Shown here: positions 10,357 to 33,087 of the stretch, piece after piece
How positions within the stretch are numbered: the stretch's first letter is position 1
Layout of the letters: each line of letters begins with the position of its first letter
Assembly: GCA_963725775.1 (NCBI GenBank)
Contig: CAVRZT010000001.1
Location: 1,036,209-1,100,208, forward strand
Length of the DNA: 64,000 nucleotides
Reading direction: 5' to 3'
From: an uncultured Actinomycetes bacterium
GTDB taxonomy: Bacteria > Actinomycetota > Acidimicrobiia > IMCC26256 > DASPTH01
Translations under genes and position numbers: made by a program
Notes under the pieces: model-generated
Seen by the model: the letters and a program-made list of their open reading frames with translations, nothing else
Databases searched by the model: none
What the model was told of the DNA's origin: nothing

Positions 10357-10375
10357 TGATCGAGGAGGAGCGCCG

Positions 10376-12512: not shown

Positions 12513-12528
12513 AGGAAGCGGGGGTACG

Positions 12529-14616: not shown

Positions 14617-14635
14617 GAAAATACTTTATCGAGAT
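14617..14635 (+). promoter_or_regulatory. Conserved motif upstream of binding-protein gene
   Basis: GAAAATACTTTATCGAGAT matches 41508..41526 (minus strand) at 17/19; TTGACA lies about 40 bp upstream. Confidence 0.6.
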
Positions 14636-14656
14636 CCGCTTTCCCGGGGGAACGAC

Positions 14657-15976
14657 ATGCGAATCGCTCGTGCGGTGCCGGCGGCCGTCGCGGTCGTCGC
14701 CACCCTTCTCGGTGTGGCACTCCTGCCCGCCGGGGCGCAGCAGAAGGTCAAGGCCGATGACGTGGGGATCACCGACACGGAGATCCGCATCGCGGTGATC
14801 GCCGACGTCGACAACCCGATCGTGCCCGGCCTGTTCAAGGCCGGGGCCGACGCGGTGAAGGCGTGGGGGGCGACGATCAACAAGGCCGGCGGCATCGCCG
14901 GCCGCAAGGTCGTCGTCGACTTCATCGACTCGAAGCTGAGCGCGAACGACACCCGCAACGCGGTCATCAAGGCGTGCAGCGAGGACTTCGCGCTCGTGGG
15001 CACGGAGGCGCTCTCGCTCAACAACGTCGCCGACCTGGAGACCTGCCCGAACGCGCAGGGCGAGGCAATCGGGATCCCCGAGCTCCCGGGTCTCGTGAGC
15101 GCGGCGGAGAAGTGCTCGCCGGTCGTGTTCTACGTCACCGCCGACGCGAGGTACTGCGACGACCAAGGACTCCCCGACGGTGACCTACACCGACCCAGCA
15201 GGGCGATTACCGCTACTACGTGTCGAAGAACAAGGACCTCCACGGCATCTGGCTCGCGCCGGCCGACGTGAAGTCGGTGAAGGACGCGGCGGTCCCGAGC
15301 TACACGGCGGGGATGGACCTCGGGATCAAGGAAGACGGCGAAGGCATCTACGACGTCTTCGCCCGCGACCCGCAGAGCTCGCTGACGCCGTTCCTGAACG
15401 TCGTCAAGCAGAACGGTTCGACGTTCGTCTACAACGGTTCCAGCGCCAGCAAGATGGTGCAAGCCCGTCAGGAGGCGGACATCCAGGGGGTCGACTCGGT
15501 GAAGGTCTGGGCATGTCACCAGGGCTGTTACGACCACGCCTTCCTCGACACGGGAGGCACCGACGTCGAAGGCACCAACTCGATCCTGAACACCCTGCCC
15601 TTCTACAGCGAGTACAAGGCGAACGCGTCGTTGAAGAGCTTCGCCAAGCAGGTCGGCGGTGTCGACAAGCTCAACAGCTACGGCATGTCGGCGTGGGTCG
15701 CGGCGCTGTTGTTCCAGGACGCGGCCGAGAAGGCCGTCGCCGACGGGGGCACGCTCACCCGGCAGTCGCTCTTCGACGCGCTGAAGGCCGAGCACAAGTT
15801 CGACGCCCAGGGCATCATGGGCCCGGTCGACGTCGCTGCCCGCATCCCGCCGACGTGCATCGTCGTCGCGCAGGTCAAGAACGGGAAGTGGGTACGCGGT
15901 CCACCCGACGAAGCCGGACACGTTCGACTGCAGCAAGCAGAACCTCACCGAGATCACGGTGAACCAGAGCGGCTGA
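14657..15976 (+). CDS. ABC-type substrate-binding protein (LivK/PBP1-like; frameshifts near 15170 and 15900)
   Basis: Signal peptide, DVGITDTEIRIAV, NKAGGIAGRKV; close paralog of 40155..41468. Confidence 0.85.
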
Positions 15977-16008
15977 CCCCGCCGCCGACCGACAACTGGG
16001 AGACAACC

Positions 16009-17296
16009 ATGGTGATGCAGTTCGAGAAGCCCGCGGCCGGCAGCTGGACGGAGGCGTATCCCGGATCTCGGTACGGGGTTGATCTCCTACGAGGATTCGA
16101 TCTCACCCGAGTTCTACGAGCTCGAGCGGGAGGCGATCTTCCGCCGCACGTGGTTGAACATCGGGCGGGTGGAGCAGGTCCCGAAGAAGGGCGAGCTACT
16201 TCACCAAGGAGCTCGCGGTCTGCGACACGTCGATCGTCGTGGTGCGGGGCCAGGACGACACGATCCGCGCGTTCCACAACATGTGTCGCCACCGCGGCAA
16301 CAAGTTGGTGTGGCAGGACTACCCGAACGAGGAAGTCGCCGGCACGTGTCGCCAGTTCACGTGCAAGTACCACGGGTGGCGGTACGCGCTCGACGGCGAG
16401 CTCACGTTCATCCAGCAGGAGCAGGAGTTCTTCGACCTCGACAAGAGCGACTTCCCGCTGGTGGAGGTCAACCTCGACATCTGGGAGGGGTTCATCTTCG
16501 TGAACCTCGACAAGGAACCGGCCGCGAGACGCTCGCAGGAGTTCCTCGGCGAGCTGGGCGAGAAGCTCGAGGGCTACCCGTTCTCCGAGCTCACGCAGGT
16601 GTTCAGCTACTCGGCGGAGGTCGGCAGCAACTGGAAGCTGTTCATCGACGCCTTCCAGGAGTTCTACCACGCACCGGTGTCTGCACGTGAAGCAGTCGCT
16701 GCCGCGAGGTCGCGGTGCCGATGATGGAAGCCGGCTTCGAGGCCATCCACTACTCGATCCACGGCGATCACCGCGTGGTGTCGACCGCCGGCGGCCGCAT
16801 GGACGCGCGGAGGTCCGCCGGAGTTCGTGAAGCCGATCGACATCGCTGTTCCGCAGTGGCCTGTTCGGCCCGTGGGACCGCGCCGAGAACGAGCGCGGTC
16901 TCCTCTCGCCGGGCATGAACCCGTCGCAGCCACCCGGCGTGGGGTCTCGACTCGTTCCAGTTCTTCCCGAACTTCGTGATCCTGGTCTGGGAGCCGGGCT
17001 GGTACCTCACGTACCACTACTGGCCGACGTCGGTGAACTCGCACATCTTCGAGGGTCGCCTCTACTTCCGGCCGCCGAAGAACGCGAGCGAGCGCCTGGC
17101 GCAGGAGCTCGCGGCGGTGACGTTCAAGGAGTTCGCGTTGCAGGACGGCAACACGCTCGAGGCGACGCAGACGATGCTGCAGTCACGCGTCATCACCGAG
17201 TTCCCGCTCTGCGACCAGGAGGTGCTGTGCCGGCACCTCCACAAGGTCGCGCACGACTACGTCGACGCCTACGGCGGCGTCGGGAAGGACAAGTGA
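16009..17296 (+). CDS. Rieske oxygenase alpha subunit (copy 2; several frameshifts)
   Basis: CRHRGNKLVW, CKYHGW, DAFQEFYHAP, FPNFVILVW, QDGNTLE; highly similar to copy 1. Confidence 0.88.
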
Positions 17297-17627
17297 TGAC
17301 GATGCTGCCCGAGCGAGTTCTCCGACCTCGAGCCGTTCGCGGCCCGGTGGTCCCTGCCGACCGAGAAGCGAACGCTACGCGGAGCGTCTGTCGAGCTCGA
17401 TGGAGGACATGCAGGCGTTCTACGACGCCACCTTCCCGCGCACCGAGGCGGCGAAGACGTATCTCGACACCTTCCCGCTCGACGCCCTGCCGGAGGACGC
17501 GACCAACCTGTTGCACCTGCTCTACTCCTTCATCTCGGTGTCGTTCGCGGTCGAGGTCTGGAAGCAGCCGAACGTGCCCGACTCGGGTGCCGCGTACCTC
17601 GACCTCGTCGGGGAGCCCACGCCATGA
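17296..17627 (+). CDS. Conserved hypothetical protein (paralog of 8772..9098; frameshifts)
   Basis: MEDMQAFYDATFPR...SFAVEVWKQPNVPDSGAAYLD; TGATG overlap with the Rieske gene. Confidence 0.78.
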
Positions 17628-18901
17628 CCGCGACGATGGTGGCCGGATCCCGGCCGAAGCCGCCCGACCACCCGGTCGTCCTGAAGGCCGACCGGATGGT
17701 CGACGTCGACGCGCGCACGATCGTCGAGCCGGGCGTCGTGGTCGTGGAGCGCGAGCACATCCGCGACGTGTCGCCCGAGCGGATCCCCGACGACGCCGAG
17801 GTGATCGAGCTCGGTGACCTGACCCTGCTGCCCGGGCTCATGGACATGGAGCTCAACTTCCTCATGGGCGGCGCCGGCGGCACGATGATGAGCTCGGTGT
17901 CGGACGATCCCGCGCTGAAGCTCATGCGGGCGATCCCGAGCGTCCGCAAGACGCTGCTGGCCGGGTTCACGACGGTGCGCAACCTCGGCCTGTTCGTGCA
18001 GACCGGCGGTCTGCTCCTCGACGTCACGCTCATGAAGGCGGTCGACGCCGGTTGGATTCCCGGGCCGCGCATCTTCCCTTCGGGGCACGCGATCACGCCG
18101 AGCGGTGGTCACCTCGATCCGACCATGTTCCAGGGGTTCGCACCGGGGGTGCTGCCGTTGACGGTCGAAGAGGGGATCGCCGACGGCGTCAGCCAGGTGC
18201 GTCGCGCGGTGCGCTACCAGATCAAGTACGGCGCCACGCAGATCAAGGTGTGCGCGTCGGGCGGCGTCATGTCGCTCACCGGTACGGCGGGCGCGCAGCA
18301 CTACTCCGACGAGGAGCTGCGGGCGATCGTCGACGAAGCCCACCGACGCGGCATGAGGGTGGCCGCGCACGCGCACGGCGACCAGGGGATCAAGGCCGCG
18401 ATCGAGGCCGGGATCGACTGCATCGAGCACGCCTCGCTCATGAGCGAGGAGACGCAGAAGCTCGCGCTCGAGCGCGGCACGTTCATCGTGCCCACGTCGT
18501 ACCTCTCCGAGGGCATGGACGTGTCGAACGCGGCACCCGAGCTGCAGGCCAAGGCGGCGGAGGTCTTCCCGATCGCGAAGAAGACGATCGCGCGGCTGAT
18601 CGACGCGGGAGCGAAGATCGCCACGGGTACCGACGCGCCGGCGATCCCGCACGGGCAGAACTGGAAGGAGCTGTGGGCGTTGGTGCAGCGCGGCATGCGG
18701 CCGGTCGACGCGATCGTGGCGTCGACGGTGGTCAGCGCGGAGCTCGTGCAGCGCGAAGGCGACCTCGGTCGCCTGGTGCCGGGCTTCCTCGCCGACGTCA
18801 TCGCGGTGCCCGGCGACCCCACCGAGGACATCACCGTCACCGAGGACGTGCAGTTCGTGATGAAGGGTGGCGTGGTCTACAAGATGCCCGTCACCGTCTG
18901 A
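17624..18901 (+). CDS. Metal-dependent amidohydrolase (prolidase-like subgroup)
   Basis: TLLPGLMD, AGFTTVR, IKVCASGGV, VAAHAHG, CIEH, GTDAP, ADVIAV.GDP; intact ORF. Confidence 0.9.
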   Translation: MTATMVAGSRPKPPDHPVVLKADRMVDVDARTIVEPGVVVVEREHIRDVSPERIPDDAEVIELGDLTLLPGLMDMELNFLMGGAGGTMMSSVSDDPALKLMRAIPSVRKTLLAGFTTVRNLGLFVQTGGLLLDVTLMKAVDAGWIPGPRIFPSGHAITPSGGHLDPTMFQGFAPGVLPLTVEEGIADGVSQVRRAVRYQIKYGATQIKVCASGGVMSLTGTAGAQHYSDEELRAIVDEAHRRGMRVAAHAHGDQGIKAAIEAGIDCIEHASLMSEETQKLALERGTFIVPTSYLSEGMDVSNAAPELQAKAAEVFPIAKKTIARLIDAGAKIATGTDAPAIPHGQNWKELWALVQRGMRPVDAIVASTVVSAELVQREGDLGRLVPGFLADVIAVPGDPTEDITVTEDVQFVMKGGVVYKMPVTV

Positions 18902-20050
18902 TGGATTTCGACCTCTCCGAGGAACACGAAGCCTTCCGCAAGGTCGTCCGCGACTTCGCGGAGCAGGAGATCGCACCGCACGCCGAGCGCGTGGGACCGC
19001 GATCACGTGTTCCCCGTCGAGGTCGTGCAGGCGATGGGCGAGCTCGGCCTGTTCGGCCTGCCGTTCCCGCTGGAGTACGGCGGGTCGGGGGCCGACTTCA
19101 CCACGTTGTGCGTCGCCATCGAGGAGGTGGCGCGCGTCGACTCGTCGATGGCGATCACGCTCGAGGCGGCGGTCGGGCTCGGCGCCGCGCCGATCGCGGC
19201 GTACGGCACCGAGGAGCAACGCCAGCAGTGGTTGCCCGACCTGTGCGCGGGGCGGGCGCTGGCCGGGTTCGGTCTCACCGAGCCCGACGCCGGAAGCGAC
19301 GCCGGCGCCAGCCGCACGCGCGCGCGCGCAGGACGGCGACGAGTGGGTGCTCGACGGCACCAAGGCGTTCATCACCAACTCGGGCACGCCCATCACCTCG
19401 CTGGTGACGGTCACCGCGCGCACGGGGTCGGCACGCGAGATCACCGCGATCATCGTCCCGACCGGCACGCCGGGGTTCACCGTGGAACCGGCGTACCGGA
19501 AGATGGGATGGCACGCCTCCGACACCCACCCGCTCACGCTTCGCCGACTGCCGGGTGCCGCTCACGAACACGCTCGGCACCGAGGGCGACGGCTTCCGTC
19601 AGTTCCTCGCCACCCTCGACGACGGCCGCATCGCCATCGCCGCGCTGGCGGTCGGGCATGGCCCAGGCGTGCCTGGAACAGAGCGTCGCGTACGCGGGGG
19701 AGCGCATGGCGTTCGGTGCGCCGATCGGCGCCAACCAGGGCGTGGCGTTCCGGTGCGCCGATCTCGCGGTGATGGTCGAGAACGCCCGGTTGCTCACCTA
19801 CAAGGCGGCGTGGCTGAAGGACGTCGGGCGTCCGTTCAAGCAGGCGGCGGCGATGGCGAAGCTCTACGCGACGGAAGCCGCGGTCGACGCCACGCGCCAC
19901 GCCACGCAGATCTTCGGCGGCGCCGGGTTCATCGACGAGACGCCGGTCAGCCGCTTCTACCGCGACGCGAAGATCCTGGAGATCGGTGAGGGAACCAGCG
20001 AGATCCAGCGGCTGGTCATCGGTCGCGAGCTGGGGCTGCCCGTCCGGTGA
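18901..20050 (+). CDS. Acyl-CoA dehydrogenase, FadE19-like (frameshifts)
   Basis: GLFGLPFP..YGG, AITLEAAVGLGA, FGLTEPDAGSD, YRDAKILEIGEGTSEIQR. Confidence 0.88.
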
Positions 20051-21029
20051 CGAGCTCGGCGACGCGGCCGCGCGACGATCCCGAGCTGCTCGCCGAAGGT
20101 GTTCGCCGCGGCGAGCGGGCGTTCGGTGGCGCGCATGCTGACGTTGGTGGAATCCGGCGACGAGGCGGCCCGCCCGGCGATCGCGTCGTTGGCCGCCGAC
20201 GGCGGACGCGCGTACACCGTCGGTGTCACCGGAGCGCCCGGTGCGGGGAAGTCGTCGCTCACCGATCAGCTCGTGCGGGTCCTCCGCGCGCAGGGCGATC
20301 CGGTGGCCGTCCTCGCGGTCGATCCGTCGAGCCCCCGTACCGGCGGGGCCATCCTCGGTGACCGGGTGCGCATGGGCGCGCACGCCACCGACCCGGATGT
20401 CTTCATCCGCTCGATGGCGACGCGCGGCCAGCTCGGGGGTCTCGCCGCGGCCGCGCCCCAGGCGATTCGGGTGCTCGATGCCAGCGGCACGCCGTGGGTC
20501 CTCGTCGAGACGGTCGGGGTCGGCCAGGTGGAGCTCGACATCGCCGGCGCGACCGACACCACCGTGGTCGTCGTCACCCCGGGCTGGGGCGACGGCGTGC
20601 AGGCCAACAAGGCCGGCCTCCTCGAGGTCGCCGACGTGTTCGTGGTGAACAAGGCCGATCGCGCCGGCGCCGACGCCGCGGTGAAGGACCTCGTCTCGAT
20701 GCTCGAGTTCTCGGCGACGGAATCGTGGCGCCCGCCGATCATCGAGACGGTCGCCACGACCGGTCAGGGCATCGACGCGTTGTGGGATGCGGTGTCGGCG
20801 CACCGCGCGCACCTGATGGAGACGGGTCTCCTCGAACGTCGTCGTCGTGAACGTCTGCACCACGAGATCCGCGAGATGGTGAAGGCGCACCTCCTGCAGC
20901 TCGCCGATGCGTGCTGTCAGGGGCCGCGGTTCGACAGCGATCGTCGAAGAGCACACCCAGGGCGCGTTCGATCCGCAGCGCGTCGCGGAACTGGTGGTCG
21001 GAGCGGAGCTCGGAGGAGTGCAGCAATGA
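20047..21029 (+). CDS. meaB: Mutase-associated GTPase MeaB/ArgK (frameshifts at both ends)
   Basis: GVTGAPGAGKSS, AVDPSSPRTGGAILGDRVRM, FIRSMATRG, ETVGVGQ, NKAD. Confidence 0.93.
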
Positions 21030-22079
21030 GTCGCGACCACGGGTTCCATCCGCTGCGCGGTCGACGCGCATCGTGCAGGAGACCCACGACACGAAGTCGT
21101 TCGTGTTCGACGTACCCGCCGAGCTGCAGGAGGCCTTCGCCTACGAGGCGGGCCAGTTCTGCACCTTCCGCGTCCCCTTCGGCGACGAAGACCTGATGCG
21201 CTGCTACTCGATGTCGAGCTCGCCGCACACCGACACCGAGTTCGTCACCACGGTGAAGCGCGTGCCCGGCGGGCGGGTCTCCAACTGGATGCTCGACGAG
21301 GTCGCGGAGGGCGACGTGCTCGCCCTCACCCGACCGGCCGGGGTCTTCACGCTGGTACCGCGCAGCACGCCGATCGTCGCGTTCTCCGGCGGCAGCGGGA
21401 TCACGCCGGTGATCTCGGTGATCAAGAGCGCGCTGGCGACCACCGAGCGGTCCGGTGCGGCTGCTCTACGCCAACCGCGACGTCGAGTCGGTCATCTTCC
21501 GGGCCGAGCTCGACGCGCTGAGCGTCGCGCATCCCGACCGGTTCGAGGTGGTGCACCACCTCGACACCGAGCACGGCTTCGTCCACTCGAACGGCGTGGC
21601 GGAGTTCGTGGGCACCGACCTCGACGCCGACTTCTACATCTGCGGACCGGGCCCGTTCATGGACGTGGTCGAGGACGCGCTGGCGCAGGTCGCGGTGCCG
21701 TCGGAGCAGGTGTTCATCGAGCGGTTCGCCTTCGCGGCGCCGCGGCGCGGCTCGACGAACCCCCGGCGCACCCCCGCGACCGCGACGGCGGTGGAGGCGG
21801 GCACCGAGACGGTCGTCATCGTGCTCGACGGGAAGGAGCACTCGGTGCACTACCAGCCCGGGGAGACGTTCCTCGAGACCGCTCGTCGCGCCGGGCTGCG
21901 CGCGCCGTTCTCGTGCGAGGCCGGGAGCTGCGCGACGTGCATGGCGTTCTTGCGCGAGGGCACGGCGACGATGCGCGTCAACAACGCGTTGACGCCCGAA
22001 GAGGTCGACGGAGGGCTGGGTGCTCACGTGCCAGGGCTTCCCGGCGTCACCGGCGGTGACCGTCGTGTACGAGTCGTGA
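21026..22079 (+). CDS. Ferredoxin-NAD(P)H reductase with C-terminal [2Fe-2S], KshB/PaaE-like (frameshifts)
   Basis: RCYSMSS, GGSGITP, YICGPGPFM, CEAGSCATC...LTCQ. Confidence 0.9.
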
Positions 22080-22140
22080 CCGTCGCGTCGCGCGTCGACA
22101 CCGCGTCGATAACCTGGATCGAACATGGGAGACGGAGCAG

Positions 22141-22878
22141 ATGGCCGAGCCCGAGGTTGCGGAGACCACCGCCGTGCGTGCCGGAACCGTGAACCATCCG
22201 AGCCTCAAGGACACCGCCGCGGCGTACCTGCGCGAGCAGATCCTCACCGGCAAGCTCACGCCGGGCACCAAGATCGACCAGGACGAGATCAGCGAGGCGC
22301 TCGGGCATGAGCCGCCTGCCCGTGCGCGAGGCGCTCATCGAGCTCGCGCAGGAGAGCCTGATCGACGCGGTGCCCCGACGCGGCGCGTTCGTCGCCCGCT
22401 TGGAACGGGCCGACATCATCGACCACTACCGGATCTTCGGACTCATCGCCGGGCTCGCGGCCAGCCGCGCCGCGACGTCGCTGACCGACGAGCAGCTCGT
22501 GCAGCTGCGCGCCGTCCACGAGGCGTTCGTCGCGGCGACCGATCCCGACGACAAGGCGAACTGGAACCACGAGTTCCACAAGATGATCAACCAGGCCGGC
22601 GGTTCGCGTCGCCTGGTCTCGGTGCTCGGCGCTGCTGTCGCGCAGCCTGCCGGTGCGCTACTTCGAGTTCGTGCCCGACTGGGCCGAGATCTCGGCGAGC
22701 CACCACGCCCGAATCCTGAGCGCGCTCGAGGCGCACGACGCGCACGAGGCGCAGCGCATGCATGGAGCACCACCTGGCCGAGAGCGGCGACCTCGCGGTC
22801 GAGATCCTCCAGGAGATGGGGTACTGGGACCGATTGCCCGGCGAGCGGACGGAAGCGAGCGAGTCCGGCGCGGCGTAG
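22141..22878 (+). CDS. GntR/FCD-family regulator (frameshifts)
   Basis: LREQILTGKLTPG...SRLPVREAL; FCD motifs NHEFH and HHARIL. Confidence 0.85.
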
Positions 22879-22882
22879 TCAC

Positions 22883-24064
22883 GTGGCGCCGCTCGACGGC
22901 ATCCGGGTCCTGGAGCTCTGTCACTTCCTCGCCGGCCCGTACGCGGGCCTGGTCCTGGCCGACCTCGGCGCCGACGTGCTGAAGGTCGAGGACCCTTCCC
23001 ATCCCGACGACGCCCGCTCGATGGGGCCGCACTTCCAGGGCGACCAGTCGCTGTACTTCCTCGCGCTGAACAGCGGGAAGCGGTCGATCGGCGTGCGCCT
23101 GGCGACGCCCGAGGGCCGCGCGGTCGTCGAGGATCTCGTGCGCGACGCCGACGTGGTCATCGACAACTACCGGCCCGGCGTGCTGGCGAAGTTCGGCCTG
23201 GATCACGACGCGCTGCACGTGGTGAACCCGGCCGTGGTCACGTGCTCGTTGACCGGCTACGGCGAGACCGGTCCCGACGCGACCCGGGCCGGCTACGACT
23301 ACACCATCCAGGCCCTCGCCGGGGTCATGAGCCTCGCCGGTGAGCCCGACGGACCGCCGACCAAGGCGGGCATCTCGTACGTCGACCACAGCGGGGGCAT
23401 CACCGCCGCGCTCGGCGTGTGCGCGGCGCTGGTCGAGCGGGCGCGCACCGGCGTCGGTTCGCACGTCGACCTCGCGCTCTTCGACGTGCAGATCTCCATG
23501 CTCACGTACCTCGCGTCGTGGCAACGGAACCGCGGCGCCGCGTTCGCGCGCACCGCGAACTCTGCGCACCCGACGCTCGTGCCCGCGCAGAACTTCCGAA
23601 CCGCCGACGGTCACCTCGCGCTCTTCATCGGCAACGACGGCATGTGGCAGCGGTTCGTCGACGTGTTGGGCGACCCGCCGTTGGCCGACGAGCGGTTCGC
23701 CACCCGCGAGGGCCGGTTGGAGCACCGGGAGGAGGTCCTCGCCCACGTCCAGCGGGTGTTCCTCACCGGTACCGGCCGCGAGTGGGAGCAACGGCTGGGC
23801 GCCGCGGGCGTCGCGTGCGGCACGGTCAACGACGTCGCCGACGCGCTCGAGGAGCCCCAGACCCGGGCGCGGGGCCTCCTGGTGCAGAACGAGCACCCGG
23901 CGTACGGGCGCTACGAACACCTTCGTGGGCCACTGCCCACACGCGGGCGCGAAACCCTGCGCCCCGCACCGCTCCTCGGCGAGCACACGACCGAAGCGCT
24001 CACCGGCATCGGGTACCCGGAGGCACGCGTCGAGGAGCTGCGCGCCGCGGGGATCGTCGTCTGA
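22883..24064 (+). CDS. CaiB/BaiF family III CoA transferase
   Basis: PLDGIRVLEL, AGPYAG..LADLGADV, NSGKRS, DNYRPG, GYDYTIQA. Confidence 0.93.
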   Translation: MAPLDGIRVLELCHFLAGPYAGLVLADLGADVLKVEDPSHPDDARSMGPHFQGDQSLYFLALNSGKRSIGVRLATPEGRAVVEDLVRDADVVIDNYRPGVLAKFGLDHDALHVVNPAVVTCSLTGYGETGPDATRAGYDYTIQALAGVMSLAGEPDGPPTKAGISYVDHSGGITAALGVCAALVERARTGVGSHVDLALFDVQISMLTYLASWQRNRGAAFARTANSAHPTLVPAQNFRTADGHLALFIGNDGMWQRFVDVLGDPPLADERFATREGRLEHREEVLAHVQRVFLTGTGREWEQRLGAAGVACGTVNDVADALEEPQTRARGLLVQNEHPAYGRYEHLRGPLPTRGRETLRPAPLLGEHTTEALTGIGYPEARVEELRAAGIVV

Positions 24065-24070
24065 CCGGAG

Positions 24071-24857
24071 TCAGCCCTCGTCGCGCGCGGCGCGTCGACG
24101 CTGCGCCGCCTCGTCGACCATCTGCCAGTGCTCGTCGGCGACCCACGTGCGCGCGAACGAGGCGATGGCGCCGTCGGCGAGGTCGGGGCGAGCGGTCGGG
24201 AACGCGGCACGCTGCGCGGCCTTGATGCCCACCAGAGCGTCCCGCGGGGCTCGCGCGATCTGCTCGGCGAGCTCGCGCCAGTGGCGCTCGAACTGCTCGC
24301 GTGGGACGACGTCGTCGAAGAGACCCTGCTCGAGCGCCTCGGGGGCGCCGAGGATCCGACCGGTGGTCATGAGCGCGAGCGCGCGTCCACGGCCCACCAA
24401 CGCGGTGAGGCGCTCGATGCCACCCCACGCCGGCATGATGCCCAGCGTCACCTGGTTGAACCCGCAGCGGACGTCGTCGGCCGCGACGCGGATGTCGCAG
24501 GCGACGGCCACTTCGGCGCCGCCGCCGTAGGCGTCGCCGTTCACCGCCGCGACCACGGGTATCGGCAGCGTGGCCATCCGGTCGAGGACCGTCCGCATGG
24601 TCACGGCCATCGCCGCGGCGTCATCGAGGGTGCGGATCGCCGCGAGCTCCTTGAGGTCACCGCCGGCGACGAAGACCCGGCTCCCGGCACCGGTGACCAC
24701 CAGCACGCGCGCCGGTGAGCCGGTCGACCTCGTCGAGGGCGTCGGCGAGCTCGCGCATGGTCGCCCGGGCGATGGAATTGCGGGCCTCGGGCCGGTCGAT
24801 GGTGAGCACCGTGACTGCGCCGTCGTGGTCGAGACGCACGTCGCCGCCACTGACCAT
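24071..24857 (-). CDS. Enoyl-CoA hydratase/isomerase (frameshift near 24720)
   Basis: TIDRPEARNSI, FVAGGDL, AVNGDAYGGGAEVAVACD, GIMPAWGG. Confidence 0.87.
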
Positions 24858-24941
24858 TCGGGAAAGATTATCAGATCTGCCGAATGCGGCTCCGGGGGTC
24901 GCCTGCTCTCGCAGCCCGAAGATGACAGCATGCGGCGCTCC

Positions 24942-24954
24942 AATATACGATATT
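24942..24954. promoter_or_regulatory. Inverted repeat over the -10 box of the mutase gene; candidate GntR operator
   Basis: AATAT-ACG-ATATT overlaps TACGAT, which lies 6 nt before ATG 24958. Confidence 0.45.
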
Positions 24955-24957
24955 TCG

Positions 24958-26554
24958 ATGGGAGCGGAGGGGGAGCTCACGACCGAAGCCGGTCTCGTCG
25001 TCGAGCGCAGCTACGGCCCCGACGATGTCGACGGCGACCTCGCGCGGCATCGGCAACCCCGGCGAATTCCCGTTCACGCGCGGCAACCATCCCGGTGGCT
25101 ACCGCGACAAGCTCTGGACGTTCCGCCAGTACTCCGGCTTCGGCACGCCCGAATGGTCGAACGAGCGCTACAAGCTCCTGCTGAAGGAGGGCGGCACCGG
25201 GCTCTCGGTGGCGGCCGATCTCCCGACCCAGATCGGGTACGACTCCGACGACCCCGAGGTCGAGGAAGAGGTCGGCCGGGTCGGGGTCGCGCTCGACTCT
25301 CTCGCCGACGCCGAGATCCTCTTCCGCGACATCCCACTCGACCAGATCTCGACGTCGTGGACGGTCAACGGCACCGCGGCGATCATGCTCGCCTTCTACG
25401 TCGCGGTCGGCGGCAAGCAGGGCGTGGCGCGTTCGAAGCTGCGCGGCACGGTGCAGAACGACATCCTCAAGGAGTACGTGGCGCGCGGCACGTGGATCTG
25501 GCCGCCGACACCGTCGATCCGGTTGATCGCCGACTCGATCGAGTTCTGCGCCGACGAGGTGCCCCGGTACAACGCGGTCTCGGTCGCGGGTGCGCACTTC
25601 CGCGACGCGGGTGCGAACGCCGCGCAGGAGATGGCGTTCACGCTGCAGGACGCGGTCACCTACTGCGACGAGATCGTCGGTCGCGGCCGGATGACGATCG
25701 ACCAGTTCGCGCCGCAGGTGTCCTTCTTCTTCTACACCCACAACGACTTCTTCGAGGAGGTCGCGAAGTACCGGGCCGGCCGCCGTCGCTGGGCGCACAT
25801 CGTCCGCGATCGCTACGGCGCGCAGGAGGCGAGCTCGTCGATGTTCCGCACCGGCGTGGTGTGCGGCGGCTGGACGCTGCAGGCGCAGCAGCCGCACAAC
25901 AACATCGTGCGGGTCGCCTACCAGGCCATGGCCGCAGTGCTCGGCGGCGTGCAGTCGATGTTCACTGCCGCGTGGGACGAGCCGTTCGCGCTTGCCCACC
26001 GAGGAGAGCACGACGCTCGCGCTGCGGACGCAGCAGATCCTCGCCCACGAGACGGGCGTCACCCGCACCGTCGATCCGCTCGGCGGGTCGTACTTCGTCG
26101 AGTCGCTCACCGACGCGATGGAGGAGAAGATCGTCGGGATCATGGCCGAGCTCGAAGCGCGCGGCGGCATGGTCCAGTGCATCGAGGACGGGTACGTGCA
26201 ACGGTTGATCGCCGACGAGTCGGCCGCGGTGCAGCGCAAGATCGACAGCGGTGAGCGCGTGATCGTCGGCGTGAACCGCTACGAGAGCGACCAGCCGGCG
26301 CCGGAGCTGGCGCCGCCCGAGATGGACGAAGCCGGCGCGCAAGGTGCAGCTCGACCGCCTGGCCGAGGTCCGGCGCACCCGCAACACGCCGGGCCGCGCT
26401 CGCCGCACTGGCCGAGCTGCGCGCCGCCGCACTGGGCGACGCCAACCTCATGCCCCACCTGGTCGAGTGCGTCGAGGAGTACTGCACGGTCGGCGAGATC
26501 ACGAAGGAGCTCAAGGACGTGTGGGGCGAGTACCAGCAGCCGACGGTGTTCTGA
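24958..26554 (+). CDS. B12-dependent acyl-CoA mutase large subunit, divergent MCM-like (frameshifts near 25040, 25990, 26340-26400)
   Basis: PGEFPFTRG, WTFRQYSGF, DLPTQIGYDSD, QNDILKEYVARGT, ALRTQQILAHETG, DPLGGSY. Confidence 0.93.
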
Positions 26555-26616
26555 TGGAGATGCAGCGGAGGCGTGGCCGGAGGCCGGGATGCCGTAGCGG
26601 AATCGACCAGGCGTGA
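26554..26616 (+). other. 20-codon bridging mini-ORF (MIRU-like translational coupler)
   Basis: TGATG overlap with the mutase stop and TGATG overlap with the B12-subunit start; encodes [20 protein letters not shown]. Confidence 0.55.
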
Positions 26617-27017
26617 TGACCGCTCCGGTGCGGGTCCTGGTCGCGAAGCCGGGCCTCGACGGTCACGACCGCGGCGCCAAGCTCGTGGCGCGGGCGTTGC
26701 GCGACTCCGGCTTCGAGGTCATCTACACCGGCATCCGGCAGAAGCCGGAGGCGATCGCGTCGATCGCCCTGCAGGAAGACGTCGACCTGGTCGGTCTCTC
26801 GATCCTCTCCGGTGCGCACATCGGGCTCACCCGCAAGACGGTCGAGGCGTTGCGGGCGTCGGGCGTCGGCGACATCAAGGTCGTGGTCGGCGGGACGGTG
26901 CCGCAGGCCGACGTGCAACCGCTGCTCGACCTCGGCGTCGCCGCGGTGTTCCCGACCGGCACTCCGATCGAGACGCTGGTCGCCGAGGTCCGTAAGCTCA
27001 CGGGCGCGGTCGGCTGA
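26616..27017 (+). CDS. Cobalamin-binding small subunit of the mutase
   Basis: [10 protein letters not shown] (DxHxxG), SILSGAH, VGG. Confidence 0.95.
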
Positions 27018-27046
27018 CCGATCGGATCCGGGACCAAGGAGCACAG

Positions 27047-27807
27047 ATGACGTTTGCAGGTTCCACCGCGATCGTGACCGGTGGCGCGTCGGGCATCGGG
27101 CTCGCGATCAGCGAACGGCTGGCCCGCGACGGCGCCAAGGTGTCGGTGTTCGACCTCGACGTCGAGCAGGCCAGACGGGCCGCGCAGGGCATCCGCGACG
27201 AGGGCGGTGAGGCCATCGCGTGCGAGGTCGACGTGTCGGACCGCGCGCAGGTCGACGCCGCGATCGAGCAGACGCGTCGCCACCCTCGGCCCGGTGCTCG
27301 TGCTGGTCAACAACGCGGGCAAGGACGGCTTCGACCCGTTCATGGACATCAGCACCGAGCTGTGGGAGCGCATCATCGCGGTGAACCTCACCGGCACGTT
27401 CCACTGCACGCAGTCGGCGTTGCCCGACATGCTCGAGGCCGAAGTGGGGCCGCATCGTCAACATCTCGTCGTCGAGCGCGCAGACCGGCGCGGTGCGGAT
27501 GGCGCACTACTCGTCGTCCAAGGGCGGCATGATCGCCCTGACGAAGTCGTTGGCGCTCGAGCTCGGACCGCACGGCATCACCGTCAACACCATCCCGCCC
27601 GGATCCATCGACACCCCGATGAGCCGCCGCTCCGCCGACGAAGGCCGATTCGGGGGCGGCACGCTCGACGACGTCGCCCGCCACCTCCCGGTGCGTCGCA
27701 TCGGCGTCCCCGAGGACATCGCGGCGGCGTGCGCGTACCTCGTGTCCGACGAAGCCGGCTACGTCACCGGACAGATCATCGGCGTCAACGGCGGCCGGGT
27801 CACCTGA
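27047..27807 (+). CDS. Short-chain dehydrogenase/reductase (frameshifts)
   Basis: [26 protein letters not shown]. Confidence 0.9.
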
Positions 27808-27831
27808 CCTCTCGATCGAGGAGCGAACGAC

Positions 27832-28270
27832 ATGGACCAGCAAGAGATGGCCGACCTGCTCGAGATCCAGCAGCTGGCGGCGCGCTACATGATGTTGTCG
27901 GCGCGGAAGGACAACGACCACTGGCTCGACGTGTTCACGCCCGACGGCGTGTACAACGCGTTCGGCACCCCGTACGGACTCGACGCCTTCCCGATGCTCC
28001 TGAAGAGCGCGCCGCCCGGCCAGTACATCGGCAACGCGCCGCTGGTCGAGTTCGACGGCGACACCGCGACCGGGGTGCAGCACTACGTCTTCGTCGACCA
28101 GACCACCCACGACATGCGCCTCGCCTGGTACGACGACGAGTACGTGCGCACCGCCGACGGCTGGCGCATCCGCTCGCGCTCGACCACGTTCATGCGCCGC
28201 AACGGCTCGTTCGACCACGGCAAGGCGCACGACCCGGCGCGCTTCGTCGCCGGTCAAGAGATCGACGTAG
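27832..28270 (+). CDS. SnoaL/NTF2-like protein (3' end uncertain)
   Basis: LEIQQLAARY...YDDEYVRTADGWRIRSR. Confidence 0.8.
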
Positions 28271-28279
28271 GCGTCGAGC

Positions 28280-29239
28280 ATGCGCATCGGCATCATGGTC
28301 GGGCCCGAGACCCGCGACTACGCGGCGCAAGGTCGACCGACTGGTCGACGACGCCAAGGCGGCCGACGACGCGGGCTTCGCGACCGCGTGGATCCCGCAG
28401 CTCCCGCAGGACTTCGACGCGATGACCGCGGTCGCGCTCATGGGGCGCGAGACGAGCCGCATCGAGCTCGGCACCGCGGTCGTCCCGCTGCAGTCGCGCC
28501 ATCCGATCGCGCTCGGCCAACAGGCGCTGTCGGTGCAGGCGGTGTGCGGCGGTCGGTTCAGCCTCGGCGTCGGGCCGTCGCACCACTGGATCGTCGACAA
28601 CATGCTGGGGTTGCCCTACGAGCAGCCGGCGAAGGTGGTCGAGGACTACCTCGACGTGTTCGACGCGATGTTCGTCGGGTCCGAGCCCGGTCGACGTCGA
28701 GAACGACCGCTTCCGCATCCACAACCCGCTCGACATCACCGACCTCGCGGTCCCCGTGCTGCTCGCGGCACTCGGTCCGGTGATGCTGCGGATCGCCGGC
28801 GAGCGGGCCGACGGCACGGTGCTGTGGATGGCCGACGAGCGCGCGATCGCCGAGCACGTCGTGCCGCGGATCACGAAGGCGGCCGAGGCGCGCGGGCCGA
28901 CCCGCGCCGCGCGTCGTCGCCGGCGTGCCGGTGGGCCTGTGTGCGGCCGACCAGGTGGACGCGGCGCGATCGAGCGGGCGAACCGCATCCTCGGTCACGC
29001 GGAGTACTCGCCCGAACTACCAGCGGCTGCTCGAGCAGGGCGACGCCGCCGACGTCGGCGACATGGCGGCGCTGGGCACCGAAGCCGACATCGAGCGCCG
29101 GCTGCGCTCGTACGCCGACGCCGGCACCACCGACTTCTCGGTCCGCGTCCTGCCGCTGGGCAACGGGCGCGACGAGATCGTCGCCTCGTCCCGCCGCACG
29201 CGCGAGTTCCTGGCGTCGCTCGCGCCCGAGTTCACGTGA
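28280..29239 (+). CDS. LLM-class, probably F420-dependent oxidoreductase (frameshifts)
   Basis: TSRIELGTAVVP..RHP, LGVGPSH, AALGPVMLRIAGERADG. Confidence 0.85.
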
Positions 29240-30903
29240 GCGTGACCCGTGAGGGGCGACCAGCTCTGGCGCGTCGCTTCCCGCGATGGCGGCCGACGCC
29301 GGCGCGCGCTTCGGTGACGCCGACGCGGTGGTCGACGGCGATCGCCGGGTGAGCTTCGCGGAGCTCGATCGCCGACGCCCGGCGCGTCACCGCCGCGCTG
29401 GTGGCGTCGGGGATCGAGCCCGGGGAGCGCGCCGCGATCTGGTCGCCGAACCGCTACGAGTGGCTGGTCGCCGCGCTGGGCACGCTCGGCGCCGGTGCCG
29501 CGGTCGTGCCGGTGAACACCCGCTTCAAGGGCGAAGAGGTGCGGTACATCCTCGAGCGCAGTGGCGCGCGCGTCGTGTTCACGGTCGGGGAGTTCCTCGG
29601 CATGGACTACGCCGCGCACCGTCGCCGACCTGCGCCCCGACCTCCCGAACCTCGCGCTCGTCGTCGGGTTCGACGACGCCGTCGGCGGCCGACCACTCGC
29701 TCGACGCGTTCTGTCGCGTTGGGTGACGCGGTCGACGCCGACGACCGTCGATGCACGCTGGGCCGCGGTCGGCGGCCGACGACGTGTGCGACGTGCTGTT
29801 CACGTCGGGCACGACCGGTGCGCCGAAGGGCGTGCTCATGACGCACGCGCAGACGCTCCGGCAGTTCTCCGACTGGTGCGACATGGCCGGACTGCAGACC
29901 GGCGACAAGTACCTGATCGTCAACCCGTTCTTCCACATGTTCGGGTACAAGGCCGGGTGCCTGGCGTCGCTCATGCAGGGCGCGACGATCATCCCGAAGG
30001 CCGGTCCTCGACGTCGACGACCTGCTGCGCACGGTCGCCGCGGAGTCGGTGACCGTGCTGCCCGGTCCGCCCACGCTCTACCAGTCGATCCTCGACCATC
30101 CCGACCGCGACGGGTTCGACCTGTCGTCGTTGCGGGTCGCGGTCACCGGCGCGGCCGACATCCCGGTCGACCTGATCCGCCGCTTGCACGAGGAGCTGCC
30201 GTTCTCCACCATCATCACCGGCTACGGGCTGACCGAAGGCGGCACGGTCACGGGCACCGGACCCGACGACGACTTCGAGACCATCGCGACCACGGTCGGT
30301 CGCGCCCGTCCCGGGCTCGAGATCCGCATCGCCGACGACGACGGGAACGCACTGCCGGTCGGCGAGCCGGGCGAGGTGCTCGTGCGCGGCTACAGCGTGA
30401 TGCGCGGCTACCTCGACGACCCGGCCGAGACCGCACGCGCCATCGACACCGAGGGTTGGCTGCACACCGGCGACCTCGGCACGCTCGACGAGCGCGGCTG
30501 CCTGCGCATCGTCGGGCGCAAGAAGGACATGTTCATCGTCGGCGGCTTCAACGCCTACCCGGCCGAGATCGAGAACCTGCTGCTCGGCCACCCCGCGGTC
30601 GGCCGGGTCGCGGTGGTCGGGATGCCCGACGAGCGCCTCGGTGAGGTCGGCATGGCCTTCGTCGTGCCCGCACCCGGCGCCGAGGTCGATCCGGACGAGC
30701 TCATCGAGTGGGCACGCGGCACGATGGCCAACTACAAGGTGCCCCGCGCAGTCGAGATCGTCGACGAGCTGCCGGTGAACGCCGCCGGCAAGGTCGAGAA
30801 GGAAACGCTGCGCGCCCGTGCCGCCTCGTTCCCGGGTCGATCCCGTTCCGCCGTCCCACGCTCCGCGCACGGCTCCACTCCATCTCCGAAGCGGAAGGGA
30901 TAG
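29236..30903 (+). CDS. Acyl-CoA synthetase, FadD3-like (frameshifts in the 5' half)
   Basis: FTSGTTGAPKG, NPFFHMFGYKAG, GYGLTE, LHTGDLG, GGFNAYPAEIE. Confidence 0.88.
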
Positions 30904-30906
30904 CTC

Positions 30907-31948
30907 GTGGACACCCGCTACTCGCCGGAGCAGCTCGAGCTGCGACGCAGCGCCGCCGTCGCTGGTCGACGACCTCGGACCGCGCACGGTCGACGACCTC
31001 GACGACGCGGTGCGGCGCGGCGCGGCTCGCCGACGCCGCGGACTGCGTCGGGGTGGTTCGAGCTCCGCGGGCCGGGTGACGACGACGGCCCGCTGGCGTC
31101 CGGCGTCGAGGTGGCGCTCGTGGCGCGGCGAGCTCGGTCGTGCCGCTGCCGACACGCCCTTCTTCGGGCCGGTGGTCGCCGCCGACCTGGCGCGTCAGGC
31201 CGGACTCGAGCTCGAGGACGCGCGTGCCAGCGTCGTGCTCGACGGCGCGTTGCTCGACGTCGCCGTCGTGCCGCCGACGGGTACGGCCGACGGGCGTCGC
31301 GGTCGACTGCGCGGGTGCGGAACGCGGCCTGGTGCTGCTCGGCGAGGGTGGTGGCGCACACCTGGCCGAGGTCGGCCATCGGCGACGCCGGCTCCGGCGA
31401 CCGACCTGACCCGCGCCCTCGCGCCGGTGACGCTCGCGGCGTCGTCGACGACCGCACTCGACGGCGCGATGCTCGATGACGACGCGCTCGAGCGGTGCCG
31501 GGCGCTCGGCGTCGCGATCACCGTCGCCGATCTCGTGGGCACGATGGAAGGCGCGATCGACACCACGTGCGAGTACGCGAAGGAGCGACAGCAGTACGGC
31601 GTGGCCATCGGATCGTTCCAGGCGGTGCAGCACCTGTTGGCCGAGGCGCGGGTGCTGCTCGAAGGATCGATCAGCGTGTCGCAGTACGCGGCGTGGGCGG
31701 TCGACGCGCTGCCACCGGCCGAGGCGAGCGACGCCGGATCGGTGGCCAAGGCGTACTGCGCCCGGGCGGCGCGCATCGTGTGCGAGACCGCCATCCAGGT
31801 GCACGGCGGTATCGGGAACACGTGGGAGTGCTTCGTGCACGTGTACCTGCGCCGGGCGCTGCTCTCGAGCTCGCTGCTCGGCGACGAGGGACACCACCTG
31901 CGGGCGCTGGCCCGCCATCGAGTGGGAGACGAACGTGGACTTCGGTGA
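30907..31948 (+). CDS. Acyl-CoA dehydrogenase, degenerate beta-type subunit (frameshifts)
   Basis: RQQYGVAIGSFQAVQH, QVHGGIGNTWE; overlaps the following ACAD gene. Confidence 0.82.
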
Positions 31949-33068
31949 CTCGCCCGAGGAAGCCGCCTTCCGCGCGCGCATCCGCGCCTGGCTGACGGAC
32001 AACAACCCCGGCCTCCCCGCGTCGTCGACCGACGACGAGTACTGGGCCCGGCAGGCCGAATGGCACTGCGCGCTGTTCGACGCGGGGTTCTTCGCGCTCA
32101 CGTGGCCGAAGCGCATCGGCGGTCACGAGCTGCCGCCCGTCTACGAGGTCATCGTCGACGAGGAGCTCGCCGCGGCCGGCGCGCCGCCCAAGCCGAGCCT
32201 CGGCTACCTGATCCAGGGCATCACCCGACACGGCAGCGACGAGATCTGCGACCGGTTCCTCCCCGCGCTCATCAGTGGGCGCGACCGCTGGTGCCAGGGG
32301 TTCAGCGAGCCCGATGCGGGCTCCGACCTCGCGTCGTTGCGCACGCGCGCGGTGCTCGACGGCGACGAGTACGTCGTCGACGGGCACAAGATCTGGACCA
32401 GCTACTCCGACGTCGCCGACTGGTGCATGCTGCTGGCGCGCACCGATCCCGGCGCACCGAAGCACAAGGGCATCTCGGCGTTCGCGGTGCCGATGCACCA
32501 GCCGGGAATCGAGCAGCGGCCGCTCAAGATGATCAACGGGGTCACGAGCGAGTTCGGCCAGGTGCTGTTCGACGGCGTGCGGGTACCGGCGGCGAACATG
32601 ATCGGCGAGCCGGGGGAGGGCTGGGCGCTGGCGATGACGGTGGTGAGCCACGAGCGCGAGCCGACGGAGCTCGGCTACGTGGCGCGCTACAGCAAGTTGG
32701 TGAACCAGCTCGAGGCGACCGTGCGCGCGCAGCCCGATCGGTACCGACCCGACCAGATCGCCGCGCTCGGTCGTGCGTACGTCGAGTCGGAGATGTTGCG
32801 CTTGCACGTGGGCCGGCGGCTCTCCGAACGCCTCGACGGAGTGAAGCACGGGCCCGACGGCTCCATCGACAAGCTGCTGATGACCGCGGTCGAACAGGCC
32901 GTCGGGCACGCCGCGTTGGCCGTCGGCGAGCCGACGCCGGTGCTCGACGCCGACGACACCTGGCTGAAGGTGTACCTCTACAGCCGCGCGCAGAGCGTGA
33001 TGGGCGGGACCTCACAGATCCAGAAGAACATCATCGCGACGCGGATCCTCGGCCTGCCGACGTCCTGA
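31935..33068 (+). CDS. Acyl-CoA dehydrogenase alpha subunit
   Basis: [38 protein letters not shown]. Confidence 0.92.
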
Positions 33069-33087
33069 GCGGTGGCGCGGTGAGAAC

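Follow-up and report, generated by a model that had tools for sequence, protein, structure and literature searches.

We analysed a window of 64,000 nucleotides (G000:C1:1036209-1100208, where G000 is the window's own assembly and G001-G015 are its congeners) from an uncultured actinobacterium of the class Acidimicrobiia, in which 18 genes join a split B12-dependent acyl-CoA mutase to a Rieske oxygenase, a family III CoA-transferase and several β-oxidation enzymes (Table 1). An initial annotation had read this run as a candidate catabolic pathway. All 18 gene families that it named were recovered, in the order it gave, by Pfam searches of the 53 stop-to-stop open reading frames (ORFs) of the window, and its outer limits are right, with 14657 the inferred start of the binding-protein gene and 33068 the stop of the last acyl-CoA dehydrogenase (ACAD) gene. 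The run had also been described as nearly contiguous and largely coupled, which fits the orthologous clusters of the congeners G011, G009 and G006, where the genes are intact and most stops and starts overlap or abut, but not the assembly as it stands, in which 11 of the 18 genes are split. Several units are apparent even in the intact clusters, with a gap after the binding protein, a gap of ~250 nt before ACAD1 (in G011) and an enoyl-CoA hydratase (ECH) gene divergent from mutA. The sole exception to their intactness is the reductase of G011, whose C-terminal ferredoxin part is out of frame. In this gene (L009 13170-14282, minus strand) Fer2 was not recognisable and the C-terminal ~90 residues seem to be out of frame, probably owing to an indel there too. 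Rfam elements gave 0 matches in the window, so that no cobalamin riboswitch was found, and terminator-like sites were about as frequent as expected by chance (4 seen, 4.5 expected).

Table 1 Features of the cluster in window coordinates, with supporting evidence and mapped frame changes
Feature	Position	Strand	Evidence and remarks
Peripla_BP_6 periplasmic solute-binding protein	14657..15969	+	Pfam, tblastn with G011; 1 frame change near 15157-15196
Rieske non-haem-iron oxygenase alpha subunit	16019..17296	+	Pfam Rieske and Ring_hydroxyl_A; at least 2 frame changes
~108-aa helical partner protein (predicted), no Pfam family	17309..17627	+	directly 3' of the Rieske gene; 1 frame change
Amidohydrolase, related to carboxypeptidase/prolidase/ochratoxin amide hydrolases	17624..18901	+	Amidohydro_1; single frame
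ACAD1, short-chain-type acyl-CoA dehydrogenase, GEG motif	18901..20050	+	Pfam, PDB 7szv; 1-4 frame changes
MeaB G-protein chaperone	20099..21030	+	PF03308; 3' end approximate, ORF continues to 21196; single frame
FNR-type reductase with C-terminal 2Fe-2S ferredoxin domain	21030..22090	+	FAD_binding_6, NAD_binding_1, Fer2; at least 1 frame change
GntR/FCD transcription regulator	22135..22880	+	Pfam GntR and FCD; 3 frame changes
Family III CoA-transferase	22877..24061	+	PF02515, 400 bits; single frame
Enoyl-CoA hydratase (crotonase, ECH), divergent from mutA	24074..24900	-	ECH_1; 1 frame change
Sigma-70-like promoter match, ECH/mutA divergent spacer	24922..24951	+	sole match in 14000-33600; 1 against 0.6 expected; weak
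mutA, large subunit of split B12 acyl-CoA mutase	24958..26554	+	PF01642 in three pieces; 4 frame changes
mutB, small B12-binding subunit	26613..27017	+	PF02310, TIGR00640 154 bits (above cut-off); single frame
Short-chain dehydrogenase/reductase (SDR), BadH/FabG-like	27044..27807	+	Pfam, NCBIfam; 2 frame changes
SnoaL_4 (NTF2-like) protein	27826..28266	+	PF13577; single frame
F420-dependent luciferase-like oxidoreductase (LLM), TIGR03564	28277..29239	+	Bac_luciferase; 2 frame changes
FadD3-family acyl-CoA ligase	29246..30903	+	AMP-binding in three pieces; at least 3 frame changes
ACAD beta-like subunit, C-terminal ACAD domain only	30907..31948	+	Pfam; start approximate; single frame
ACAD alpha subunit, PimC-like	31935..33068	+	Pfam; 90% identity to G011; single frame

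The mutase consists of a large subunit of 531 aa and a small subunit of 134 aa. Its closest relative of solved structure is HcmA of the 2-hydroxyisobutyryl-CoA mutase (HCM; 4r3u_A, 484 bits), followed by human methylmalonyl-CoA mutase (MCM; 440 bits); these and the other NCBIfam, Pfam and PDB scores given below were mostly obtained with the intact orthologues of G011. Aligned to 4r3u_A, mutA reads RQYSGF for RQIAGF, SVAAD for ISTDFD and VARGTW for MAQKEY, so that the Ile, Asp and Gln of HcmA are matched by Tyr, Ala and Arg, and these motifs recur in its relatives as RQY, SVA(A/L)D and (A/S)RGTW. Membership of HCM was rejected since the HcmA substrate residues are not present, whereas the Tyr and Arg agree with MCM. 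The MCM equivalog model NF006944 was not passed (554.2 bits against a cut-off of 876), and the generic domain model TIGR00641 alone was. When nine clade members were compared with relatives of ~50% identity, four further changes were fixed in all nine: SGYH to AGAH, FHTQT to FG(C/V)V, SLHTNS to SMFTAA and YIFPP to WIWPP. The GYH tyrosine is thus replaced by Ala and HxQ by G(C/V)V, while six MCM-like relatives and a second mutase of the window keep the MCM residues at both motifs; the GxH histidine is retained. MCM was rejected on the failed equivalog model, and a separate canonical MCM is encoded on contig C3 of G000 (777 bits). The mutase thus belongs to a distinct, uncharacterised actinobacterial clade that fits neither HCM nor MCM. 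Because Tyr and Arg are kept and pocket residues are replaced, and given the roles that we assume for them from MCM and HCM, the pocket is predicted to be enlarged and hydrophobic, and the substrate should carry a free carboxylate and a hydrophobic substituent bigger than methyl.

The second split mutase of the window (54565-56591, plus strand) is intact, with subunits of 542 aa and 134 aa, and only 51% identical to that of the cluster. Its substrate positions carry RMF and AQKEY, and we take this combination of Phe and Gln to be of the isobutyryl-CoA mutase type. It lies behind a MarR-like gene, and its neighbours, spanning 54182-62226, include DUF35/ChsH2-like OB-fold and thiolase-like pairs, an 815-aa double family III CoA-transferase and a cytochrome P450 (P450).

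The mutase and part of its neighbourhood are conserved well beyond the genus. Among 151 genomes of the class, mutA orthologues of at least 69% identity occur in G016, G020, G054, G085, G139 and G157, with the next matches at ~50%; the copy in G085 sits on a 2.7-kb contig with no neighbourhood to inspect. Four of these genomes represent other families (G020, G054, G139 and G157), and in each of them mutAB (68-75% identity) stands beside orthologues of cluster genes in shuffled order. ECH (55-59%), LLM (64-67%), ligase (62-64%), reductase (52-54%) and SnoaL_4 (60-64%) lie near the mutase in all four, SDR orthologues (58-64%) in three (G054, G157 and G020), and both ACAD subunits, alpha at 75-78% and beta at 48-53%, in another three (G139, G157 and G020). 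Others were found near the mutase in a single genome: the amidohydrolase in G054, the Rieske gene with the small protein in G020 and the binding protein in G139; MeaB was beside the mutase in none of the four.

When species genomes were searched with a seven-orthologue mutase alignment, 36 loci of 66-86% identity were obtained within Actinomycetota, namely from Mycobacterium, Mycolicibacterium, Mycolicibacter, Nocardia, Amycolatopsis, Streptomyces, Frankia, a Thermoleophilaceae metagenome-assembled genome (MAG) and Acidimicrobiia MAGs; the next matches below these were split MCM-like genes of ~50% identity from Bacillota, Thermococcus and others. Neighbours were counted within 10 kb on either side at thresholds of 45% identity and half the query length, with the CoA-transferase counted at 38-44% identity. 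All 36 loci have mutB, 34 a CoA-transferase and 27 the LLM, the steadiest neighbour of the mutase, in the recurrent order mutA-mutB-LLM-CoA-transferase. ACAD alpha follows at 16 loci (64-78% identity beside the mutase in other taxa), ACAD beta at 10, ECH at nine, the reductase at seven and the ligase at five; the small protein was counted at four, the Rieske gene and the amidohydrolase at three each, and GntR at 0/36. The core recurs at 66-72% mutase identity in Mycobacterium, Nocardia, Streptomyces, Frankia, Amycolatopsis and Acidimicrobiia. In Nocardia the unit is preceded by five Mce genes, a P450 and two SDRs and followed by reductase, ligase, ACAD beta/alpha, ECH and MeaB; in Streptomyces fuscichromogenes a Rieske-small-amidohydrolase group lies ~7 kb upstream of ligase-mutA-mutB-LLM-CoA-transferase. 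Recurrence of the gene set in different genera, families and classes puts its linkage far beyond chance. As far as gene content tells, the cluster is modular, with an ancient core of mutA-mutB-LLM-family III CoA-transferase that is usually accompanied by ligase, ACAD alpha/beta pair, ECH and reductase and sometimes by MeaB, and with a variable oxygenase front end (Rieske and 108-aa partner, or P450) and variable uptake (binding protein or Mce).

Within the genus, a DNA search over 31 genomes, 16 of them congeneric, found a long form of the cluster in six of the 16 (G000, G003, G006, G009, G010 and G011), syntenic in G010 and both syntenic and intact in G006, G009 and G011. Only in G000 and G006 is ACAD1 separated from the reductase by MeaB. 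The mutase copy of G003 is cut by contig ends, G001 has a 74% mutase fragment on another contig, and G004 gave paralogue-level matches only.

The split genes of the window itself require explanation. With a G+C content of 66-73%, plain ORF lists are swamped by spurious frames, and ORF-length coverage did not discriminate as a proxy for broken genes, out-of-frame ORFs being long in 70% GC DNA. Coding frames were instead mapped with a third-position GC (GC3) frame plot and a simple frame hidden Markov model (HMM), and frame changes were located by tblastn mapping of intact orthologous proteins (e.g. from G011) onto the window. The 11 split genes carry at least 21 frame changes, or 24 if the middle of ACAD1 is resolved the alternative way, and each is spread over 2-5 reading frames; for mutA, Pfam profile positions 26-340, 337-450 and 468-512 fall in three different ORFs. 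The amidohydrolase, MeaB, the CoA-transferase, mutB, SnoaL_4 and the two terminal ACADs are the seven single-frame genes. By the frame HMM, switches are unusually frequent at ~11-34 kb of the window, with long frames at 36-64 kb, and the cluster region holds 36-43 short frame segments per 20 kb; genome-wide, short same-strand segments per 20 kb have a median of 13, a 95th percentile of 43 and a maximum of 76 (1019 windows).

Similar damage was found elsewhere in G000, an assembly of 5.2 Mb in 6 contigs that was scored only 66% complete. Two of the five long essential genes tested are split, ileS into six frame pieces and alaS likewise, both in other dense patches, while rpoB, rpoC and secA are whole; one of four other mutase genes (C2:460112-461465) is fragmented too. 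Since a living cell cannot carry such lesions in essential genes, we read the breaks as assembly errors, and as rpoB, rpoC and secA are intact, the argument rests on ileS, alaS and the low completeness. Every piece of the broken cluster genes keeps its codon bias (GC3 0.85-0.97), with amino acid identity to a congener of up to 96%, a value that mutA reaches against G011 over residues 32-346 despite its frame changes. Contigs of close relatives differ from the window by single-base indels at 15192, 19538, 28674 and 16804/16815, at or near mapped breaks, and at 15192, in the binding-protein gene, they are 1 base shorter. We infer that the breaks are uncorrected single-base assembly indels rather than decay and that the cluster is intact in nature. 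In practice, apparent pseudogene clusters of G000 would then be assembly errors, and frame breaks should be bridged when its gene calls are used. Stretches of 20-30 kb that are rich in indels are scattered over every contig of G000, and short segments reach up to 76 per 20 kb in the densest of them, C1:400-430 kb; the fragmented ileS and alaS lie at C1:1976928-1979333 and C1:2024502-2027029.

The oxygenase front end contains the least familiar protein of the cluster. The best PDB match of the Rieske alpha subunit is CntA, at only 98 bits and over the N-terminal half only, and its CxH/CxxH and two-His motifs are invariant among the sequences aligned. The 108-aa protein, which has no Pfam or NCBIfam match and for which the protein atlas gave only unnamed actinobacterial clusters, is always encoded immediately 3' of the Rieske gene, in two paralogous sets. 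It was modelled (pLDDT 81.9) as a helical protein with a bundle of 4-5 helices and a disordered, highly conserved tail, and Foldseek gave no fold match in the PDB at E<=0.001. The partner so modelled is not a beta subunit of the NTF2 fold. Complex prediction for the Rieske protein and the 108-aa protein scored 0.92, against 0.01 for the best of three controls, with runs agreeing in at least 96% of contacts and a partner pLDDT of at least 92. Among solved complexes 58 of 80 attain that mark, and among mismatched pairs 2 of 110, a calibration that holds only roughly since our own alignments were used. The predicted complex supports binding of the 108-aa protein to the Rieske catalytic domain through its conserved tail.

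A Rieske alpha paralogue at 7449-9095 (plus strand) is a single frame of 549 aa, the last 107 residues of which are 65% identical to the 108-aa protein and start at that protein's own Met. This ORF is either a natural fusion or the product of an assembly indel that deleted a stop; in the congener G010 the Rieske paralogue and the small protein are in separate frames.

The remaining enzymes were assigned at family level. The amidohydrolase scores 375 bits with NF051886, under the cut-off of 500, and its best PDB matches are the Arg carboxypeptidase Cc2672 and an Xaa-Pro dipeptidase (240-252 bits). ACAD1 matches PDB 7szv at 482 bits, and its active-site motif is GEG, reading ILEIGEGTSEIQ in both G011 and the window. 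MeaB scores 304 bits with PF03308 and 316 bits with TIGR00750, above the cut-off of 240.75. The reductase is PaaE/GbcB-like by NCBIfam, below cut-offs, and the nearest PDB entries to the CoA-transferase are the CaiB/BaiF protein 4ed9, formyl-CoA transferase and succinate-hydroxymethylglutarate CoA-transferase. The LLM passes TIGR03564 (340.2 bits against 234.25), and the ligase of G011 passes NF005801, the FadD3 family (752.7 bits against 657), which indicates family membership and not substrate. The terminal ACAD alpha/beta pair is PimCD-like, its beta subunit PimD/IpdE2-like and far under cut-offs. A supply of F420 and adenosylcobalamin is plausible because G000 encodes CofE and a PduO-type adenosyltransferase.

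Based on these assignments, we propose that a hydrophobic, branched or cyclic carboxylic compound would be taken up by the binding-protein system here, or by Mce in Nocardia, and hydroxylated by a reductase-fed oxygenase, comprising the Rieske alpha subunit and its 108-aa partner here and a P450 elsewhere. Where the substrate is amide-conjugated, it could be freed by the carboxypeptidase-like amidohydrolase. Thioesterification and β-oxidation would then proceed down to a bulky substituted succinyl-type dicarboxylyl-CoA, the CoA-transferase would put CoA on the right carboxyl, and the mutase would shift the carbonyl group between neighbouring carbons (a 1,2-shift), converting a substituted succinyl-CoA to a substituted malonyl-CoA or the reverse, so that the block is gone and β-oxidation resumes. 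This order of reactions, like any role of the LLM and the SnoaL_4 protein, is conjectural. The substrate may be a diterpenoid, steroid-like or naphthenic acid, as the initial annotation supposed, and a lipid-like compound is plausible because Mce transporters adjoin the Nocardia copy.

Taken jointly, it is somewhat probable that this is a genuine catabolic cluster, intact in nature, which follows the proposed branched/cyclic-acid route and is built around an ancient unit of split adenosylcobalamin mutase, TIGR03564 oxidoreductase and family III CoA-transferase, served by ligase, ACAD pair, crotonase, SDR and sometimes MeaB. Several observations weigh against it. A short form of the cluster is found in nine of the 16 congeneric genomes (G001, G002, G005, G007, G008, G012, G013, G014 and G015), in which amidohydrolase-reductase-GntR is joined directly to SDR-SnoaL_4-LLM-ligase-ACADs, without ACAD1, CoA-transferase, ECH or mutAB in the cluster, and the flanking genes can therefore work without the mutase. 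By protein search (E<=1e-100) an orthologous mutase was not found in 8 of 10 congeners, although these genomes are 59-90% complete and absence is not asserted. The linkage that the initial annotation had put up for checking, of mutase with MeaB, Rieske gene and small protein, is conserved only in part: the set recurs in 6/16 genomes of the genus, a sister genus and four other families of the order, and partly in Streptomyces, Nocardia and Mycobacterium, but any part of the Rieske/small/amidohydrolase trio lies near the mutase at just 4 of the 36 distant loci, with P450s elsewhere instead, and MeaB at 10. In other families ACAD1 is matched beside the mutase at just 39% in G054 and G020 and not at all in G139 and G157, and the CoA-transferase of the distant loci, ~41% identical to that of the window, may not be orthologous. 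Intactness in nature is argued from the rest of the genome and not directly at the locus: the breaks show no long-homopolymer signature (a run of at least 4 in just 4 of 25 junction windows), and no same-strain reads were found in public runs, the best holding 0.07 of the sampled words. The four read runs compared carry relatives only, mostly 90-95% alike, and their depth and cover are uninformative for this organism. Pocket roles (carboxylate binding by Tyr and Arg of MCM, the pocket walls and the substrate residues of HcmA) are those that we presume from the MCM/HCM literature. The HCM substrate residues are not named in PMC2847961. As for novelty, leading an oxygenase product to a B12 mutase is not a new concept, since the hcl-hcmAB-meaH and ibc routes are known, as described in PMC7176365 and PMC13188929.

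Some of these points would also fit two or more independent units with different substrates lying side by side, one of Rieske, small protein, amidohydrolase, reductase, GntR and binding protein for an amide or N-acyl compound, and one of mutAB-LLM-CoA-transferase-ligase-ACAD for another acid. The several transcription units, with ECH divergent from mutA, the rarity of the Rieske trio at distant mutase loci, the nine congeners that keep both flanks without the mutase module, and the wealth of paralogues in the window, a large island of CoA-dependent genes with a second mutase, further binding proteins and a Rieske paralogue, all favour such an arrangement. Yet both sets are found together in more than one class (within Acidimicrobiia the genus and its order, outside it one Actinomycetes MAG and two species of Streptomyces), the reductase that the oxygenase requires stays in the conserved set even where gene order is shuffled, and in the window's genus the mutase module is inserted between the genes of the other unit, not beside them, so that we regard independent units as possible but rather unlikely. 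An aerobic version of the indoleacetate (iaa) route, in which oxygenase and amidohydrolase would lead to (2-aminophenyl)succinate and on to IaaL-, IaaGH- and IaaF-like steps, would bring together the family III CoA-transferase, a split mutase with carboxylate-binding residues, ACAD, MeaB, amidohydrolase and binding protein, and it fits the iaa logic described in PMC8360864. It is nevertheless improbable, as ACAD1 is not conserved with the mutase and the conserved partners (F420 LLM, heteromeric ACAD pair, Mce and P450) are not iaa components.

That the cluster is a real, decaying pseudogene cluster with biological frame changes appears very improbable. The number of changes, their position outside long homopolymers and the failure to find same-strain reads among public runs agree with decay, but ileS and alaS are split in like manner, the genome is 66% complete despite its 6 contigs, identity and GC3 remain high in every piece and a further mutase gene on contig C2 is fragmented too. 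Least probable of all is a 2-hydroxyisobutyrate/tert-butyl-type pathway (hcl-hcmAB-meaH) or a steroid ring C/D (HIP, FadD3) cluster. HcmA is indeed the top PDB match, the split architecture is shared, MeaB and GntR are nearby and the ligase passes the FadD3-family model; against this, the mutase has Tyr/Ala/Arg for the Ile/Asp/Gln of HcmA, the ACAD pair scores 80.6 bits against an IpdE2 cut-off of 450, and IpdAB, EchA20 and a TetR-type KstR2 signature were not found in the cluster.

Outside the cluster, the window contains further catabolic genes. Just upstream (11842-14531, plus strand) lie a TetR_N signal and a molybdopterin oxidoreductase (Molybdop_Fe4S4, Molybdopterin, Molydop_binding), whose region is spread over several frames and thus also hit by frame breaks. 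Between it and the Rieske paralogue, at 10376-11188 and 9115-10376 (both plus strand), are a TauD-family dioxygenase, a CMD-family protein and a 3-hydroxyisobutyrate-dehydrogenase-like gene. Downstream, the GC3 model gives no coding-frame signal over ~2 kb at 34442-36499, where the ORFs tested also lacked Pfam matches. A further CoA-dependent block on both strands follows at 36488-46525, with an AMP-ligase, an ACAD beta/alpha pair and a binding-protein paralogue (40158-41573, minus strand), faced by a carboxyltransferase (41556-43121), an ECH, a TauD-family dioxygenase (44005-44847) and a second ligase; it resembles equipment for methyl-branched acyl-CoAs.

Each new B12 mutase specificity has opened a pathway and provided a tool for carbon-skeleton rearrangement. 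To our knowledge, only a handful of acyl-CoA specificities are known, namely methylmalonyl-, isobutyryl-, ethylmalonyl-, 2-hydroxyisobutyryl-, pivalyl- and phenylsuccinyl-CoA. We tentatively suggest, as a possibility short of probable, that this mutase clade has a seventh type of specificity, interconverting a bulky, hydrophobic substituted succinyl-CoA and its substituted malonyl-CoA counterpart, and that with the LLM and the CoA-transferase it forms the core of a widespread aerobic actinobacterial pathway for a common environmental lipid-like compound with a branch point that blocks β-oxidation, fed in some lineages by a new two-subunit Rieske oxygenase with the 108-aa partner. Given the fixed, distinctive pocket and the conserved operon in many cultivable actinobacteria, a new specificity would be directly testable, as would a function for the orphan F420 family TIGR03564, which is without an assigned reaction.

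The description of the pathway as new agrees with the literature searched, in which no characterised equivalent was found (mutase with Rieske, F420 or Mce; alkylsuccinyl-CoA mutase; steroid, terpenoid and naphthenic acids), most subscription journals and supplements lying outside the search. Steroid ring C/D clusters share the FadD3-family ligase, at the level of family membership only; the terminal ACAD falls short of the IpdE2 model as given above, an IpdAB-type (family I) CoA-transferase, EchA20 and a TetR-type KstR2 signature were not found in the cluster, where the regulator is GntR/FCD, and a HIP/steroid cluster was rejected for want of KstR2-regulon signatures beyond the ligase.

Closest in logic is the anaerobic iaa module of Aromatoleum aromaticum (IaaL, IaaGH, IaaF; PMC8360864). 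There, too, a family III CoA-transferase and an ACAD are clustered with a split mutase for a substituted succinyl/malonyl-CoA, together with a binding protein and regulators, a likeness at family level only. The resemblance noted in the initial annotation thus extends to the kept carboxylate Tyr/Arg of the mutase and the linked family III CoA-transferase, but not to ACAD1, which is not conserved with the mutase outside the genus. In that source IaaF is defined by GGG in place of YEG, and GEG is listed for methylsuccinyl-CoA dehydrogenase; as ACAD1 has GEG and not GGG, IaaF membership was rejected. The cluster differs further in its O2-dependent oxygenases and F420 enzyme. The combination of the mutase set with such oxygenases, to which the initial annotation had pointed, is present here, although the Rieske link is facultative.

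The hcl-hcmAB-meaH clusters with a GntR regulator, with which Aquincola and Mycolicibacterium sp. ELW1 degrade methyl tert-butyl ether (MTBE), tert-butyl alcohol and isobutylene, and the ibc clusters for isobutylene (PMC7176365, PMC13188929) are similar in being aerobic, in activating an oxygenase product with CoA and rearranging it with a split B12 mutase and a MeaB-type chaperone, and in having GntR nearby. The cluster shares the split subunits of HcmAB, with MeaB present in G000 and G006 only, and HcmA is the best solved-structure match to mutA. The residue differences from HcmA imply a carboxylated, bulkier substrate, the ligase is of the FadD3 family, and the available parts of these sources do not describe hcl-hcmAB-meaH with the F420 LLM, family III CoA-transferase and heteromeric ACAD pair that are conserved here. 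MCM of P. shermanii, human and M. tuberculosis and the split MCM-like proteins of Bacillota and Archaea share the residues that align with the substrate Tyr and the carboxylate Arg, and the GxH His, with ~50% identity to the split MCM-like forms; the mutase differs in scoring under the equivalog cut-off, in its clade-wide pocket replacements and in its catabolic-operon setting, with the canonical MCM elsewhere in G000.

Three-component Rieske oxygenases, both those of alpha3-beta3 plus reductase and the alpha-only CntA/GbcA type, share with the cluster an alpha subunit that carries both a Rieske and a catalytic domain, and a reductase of the FNR type that includes a plant-type ferredoxin domain. 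The cluster differs in that similarity to CntA is limited to the low-scoring N-terminal half and that the partner is a helical protein of ~108 aa rather than an NTF2-type beta subunit; if the predicted binding is true, this helical partner would represent a novel subunit type among Rieske oxygenases.

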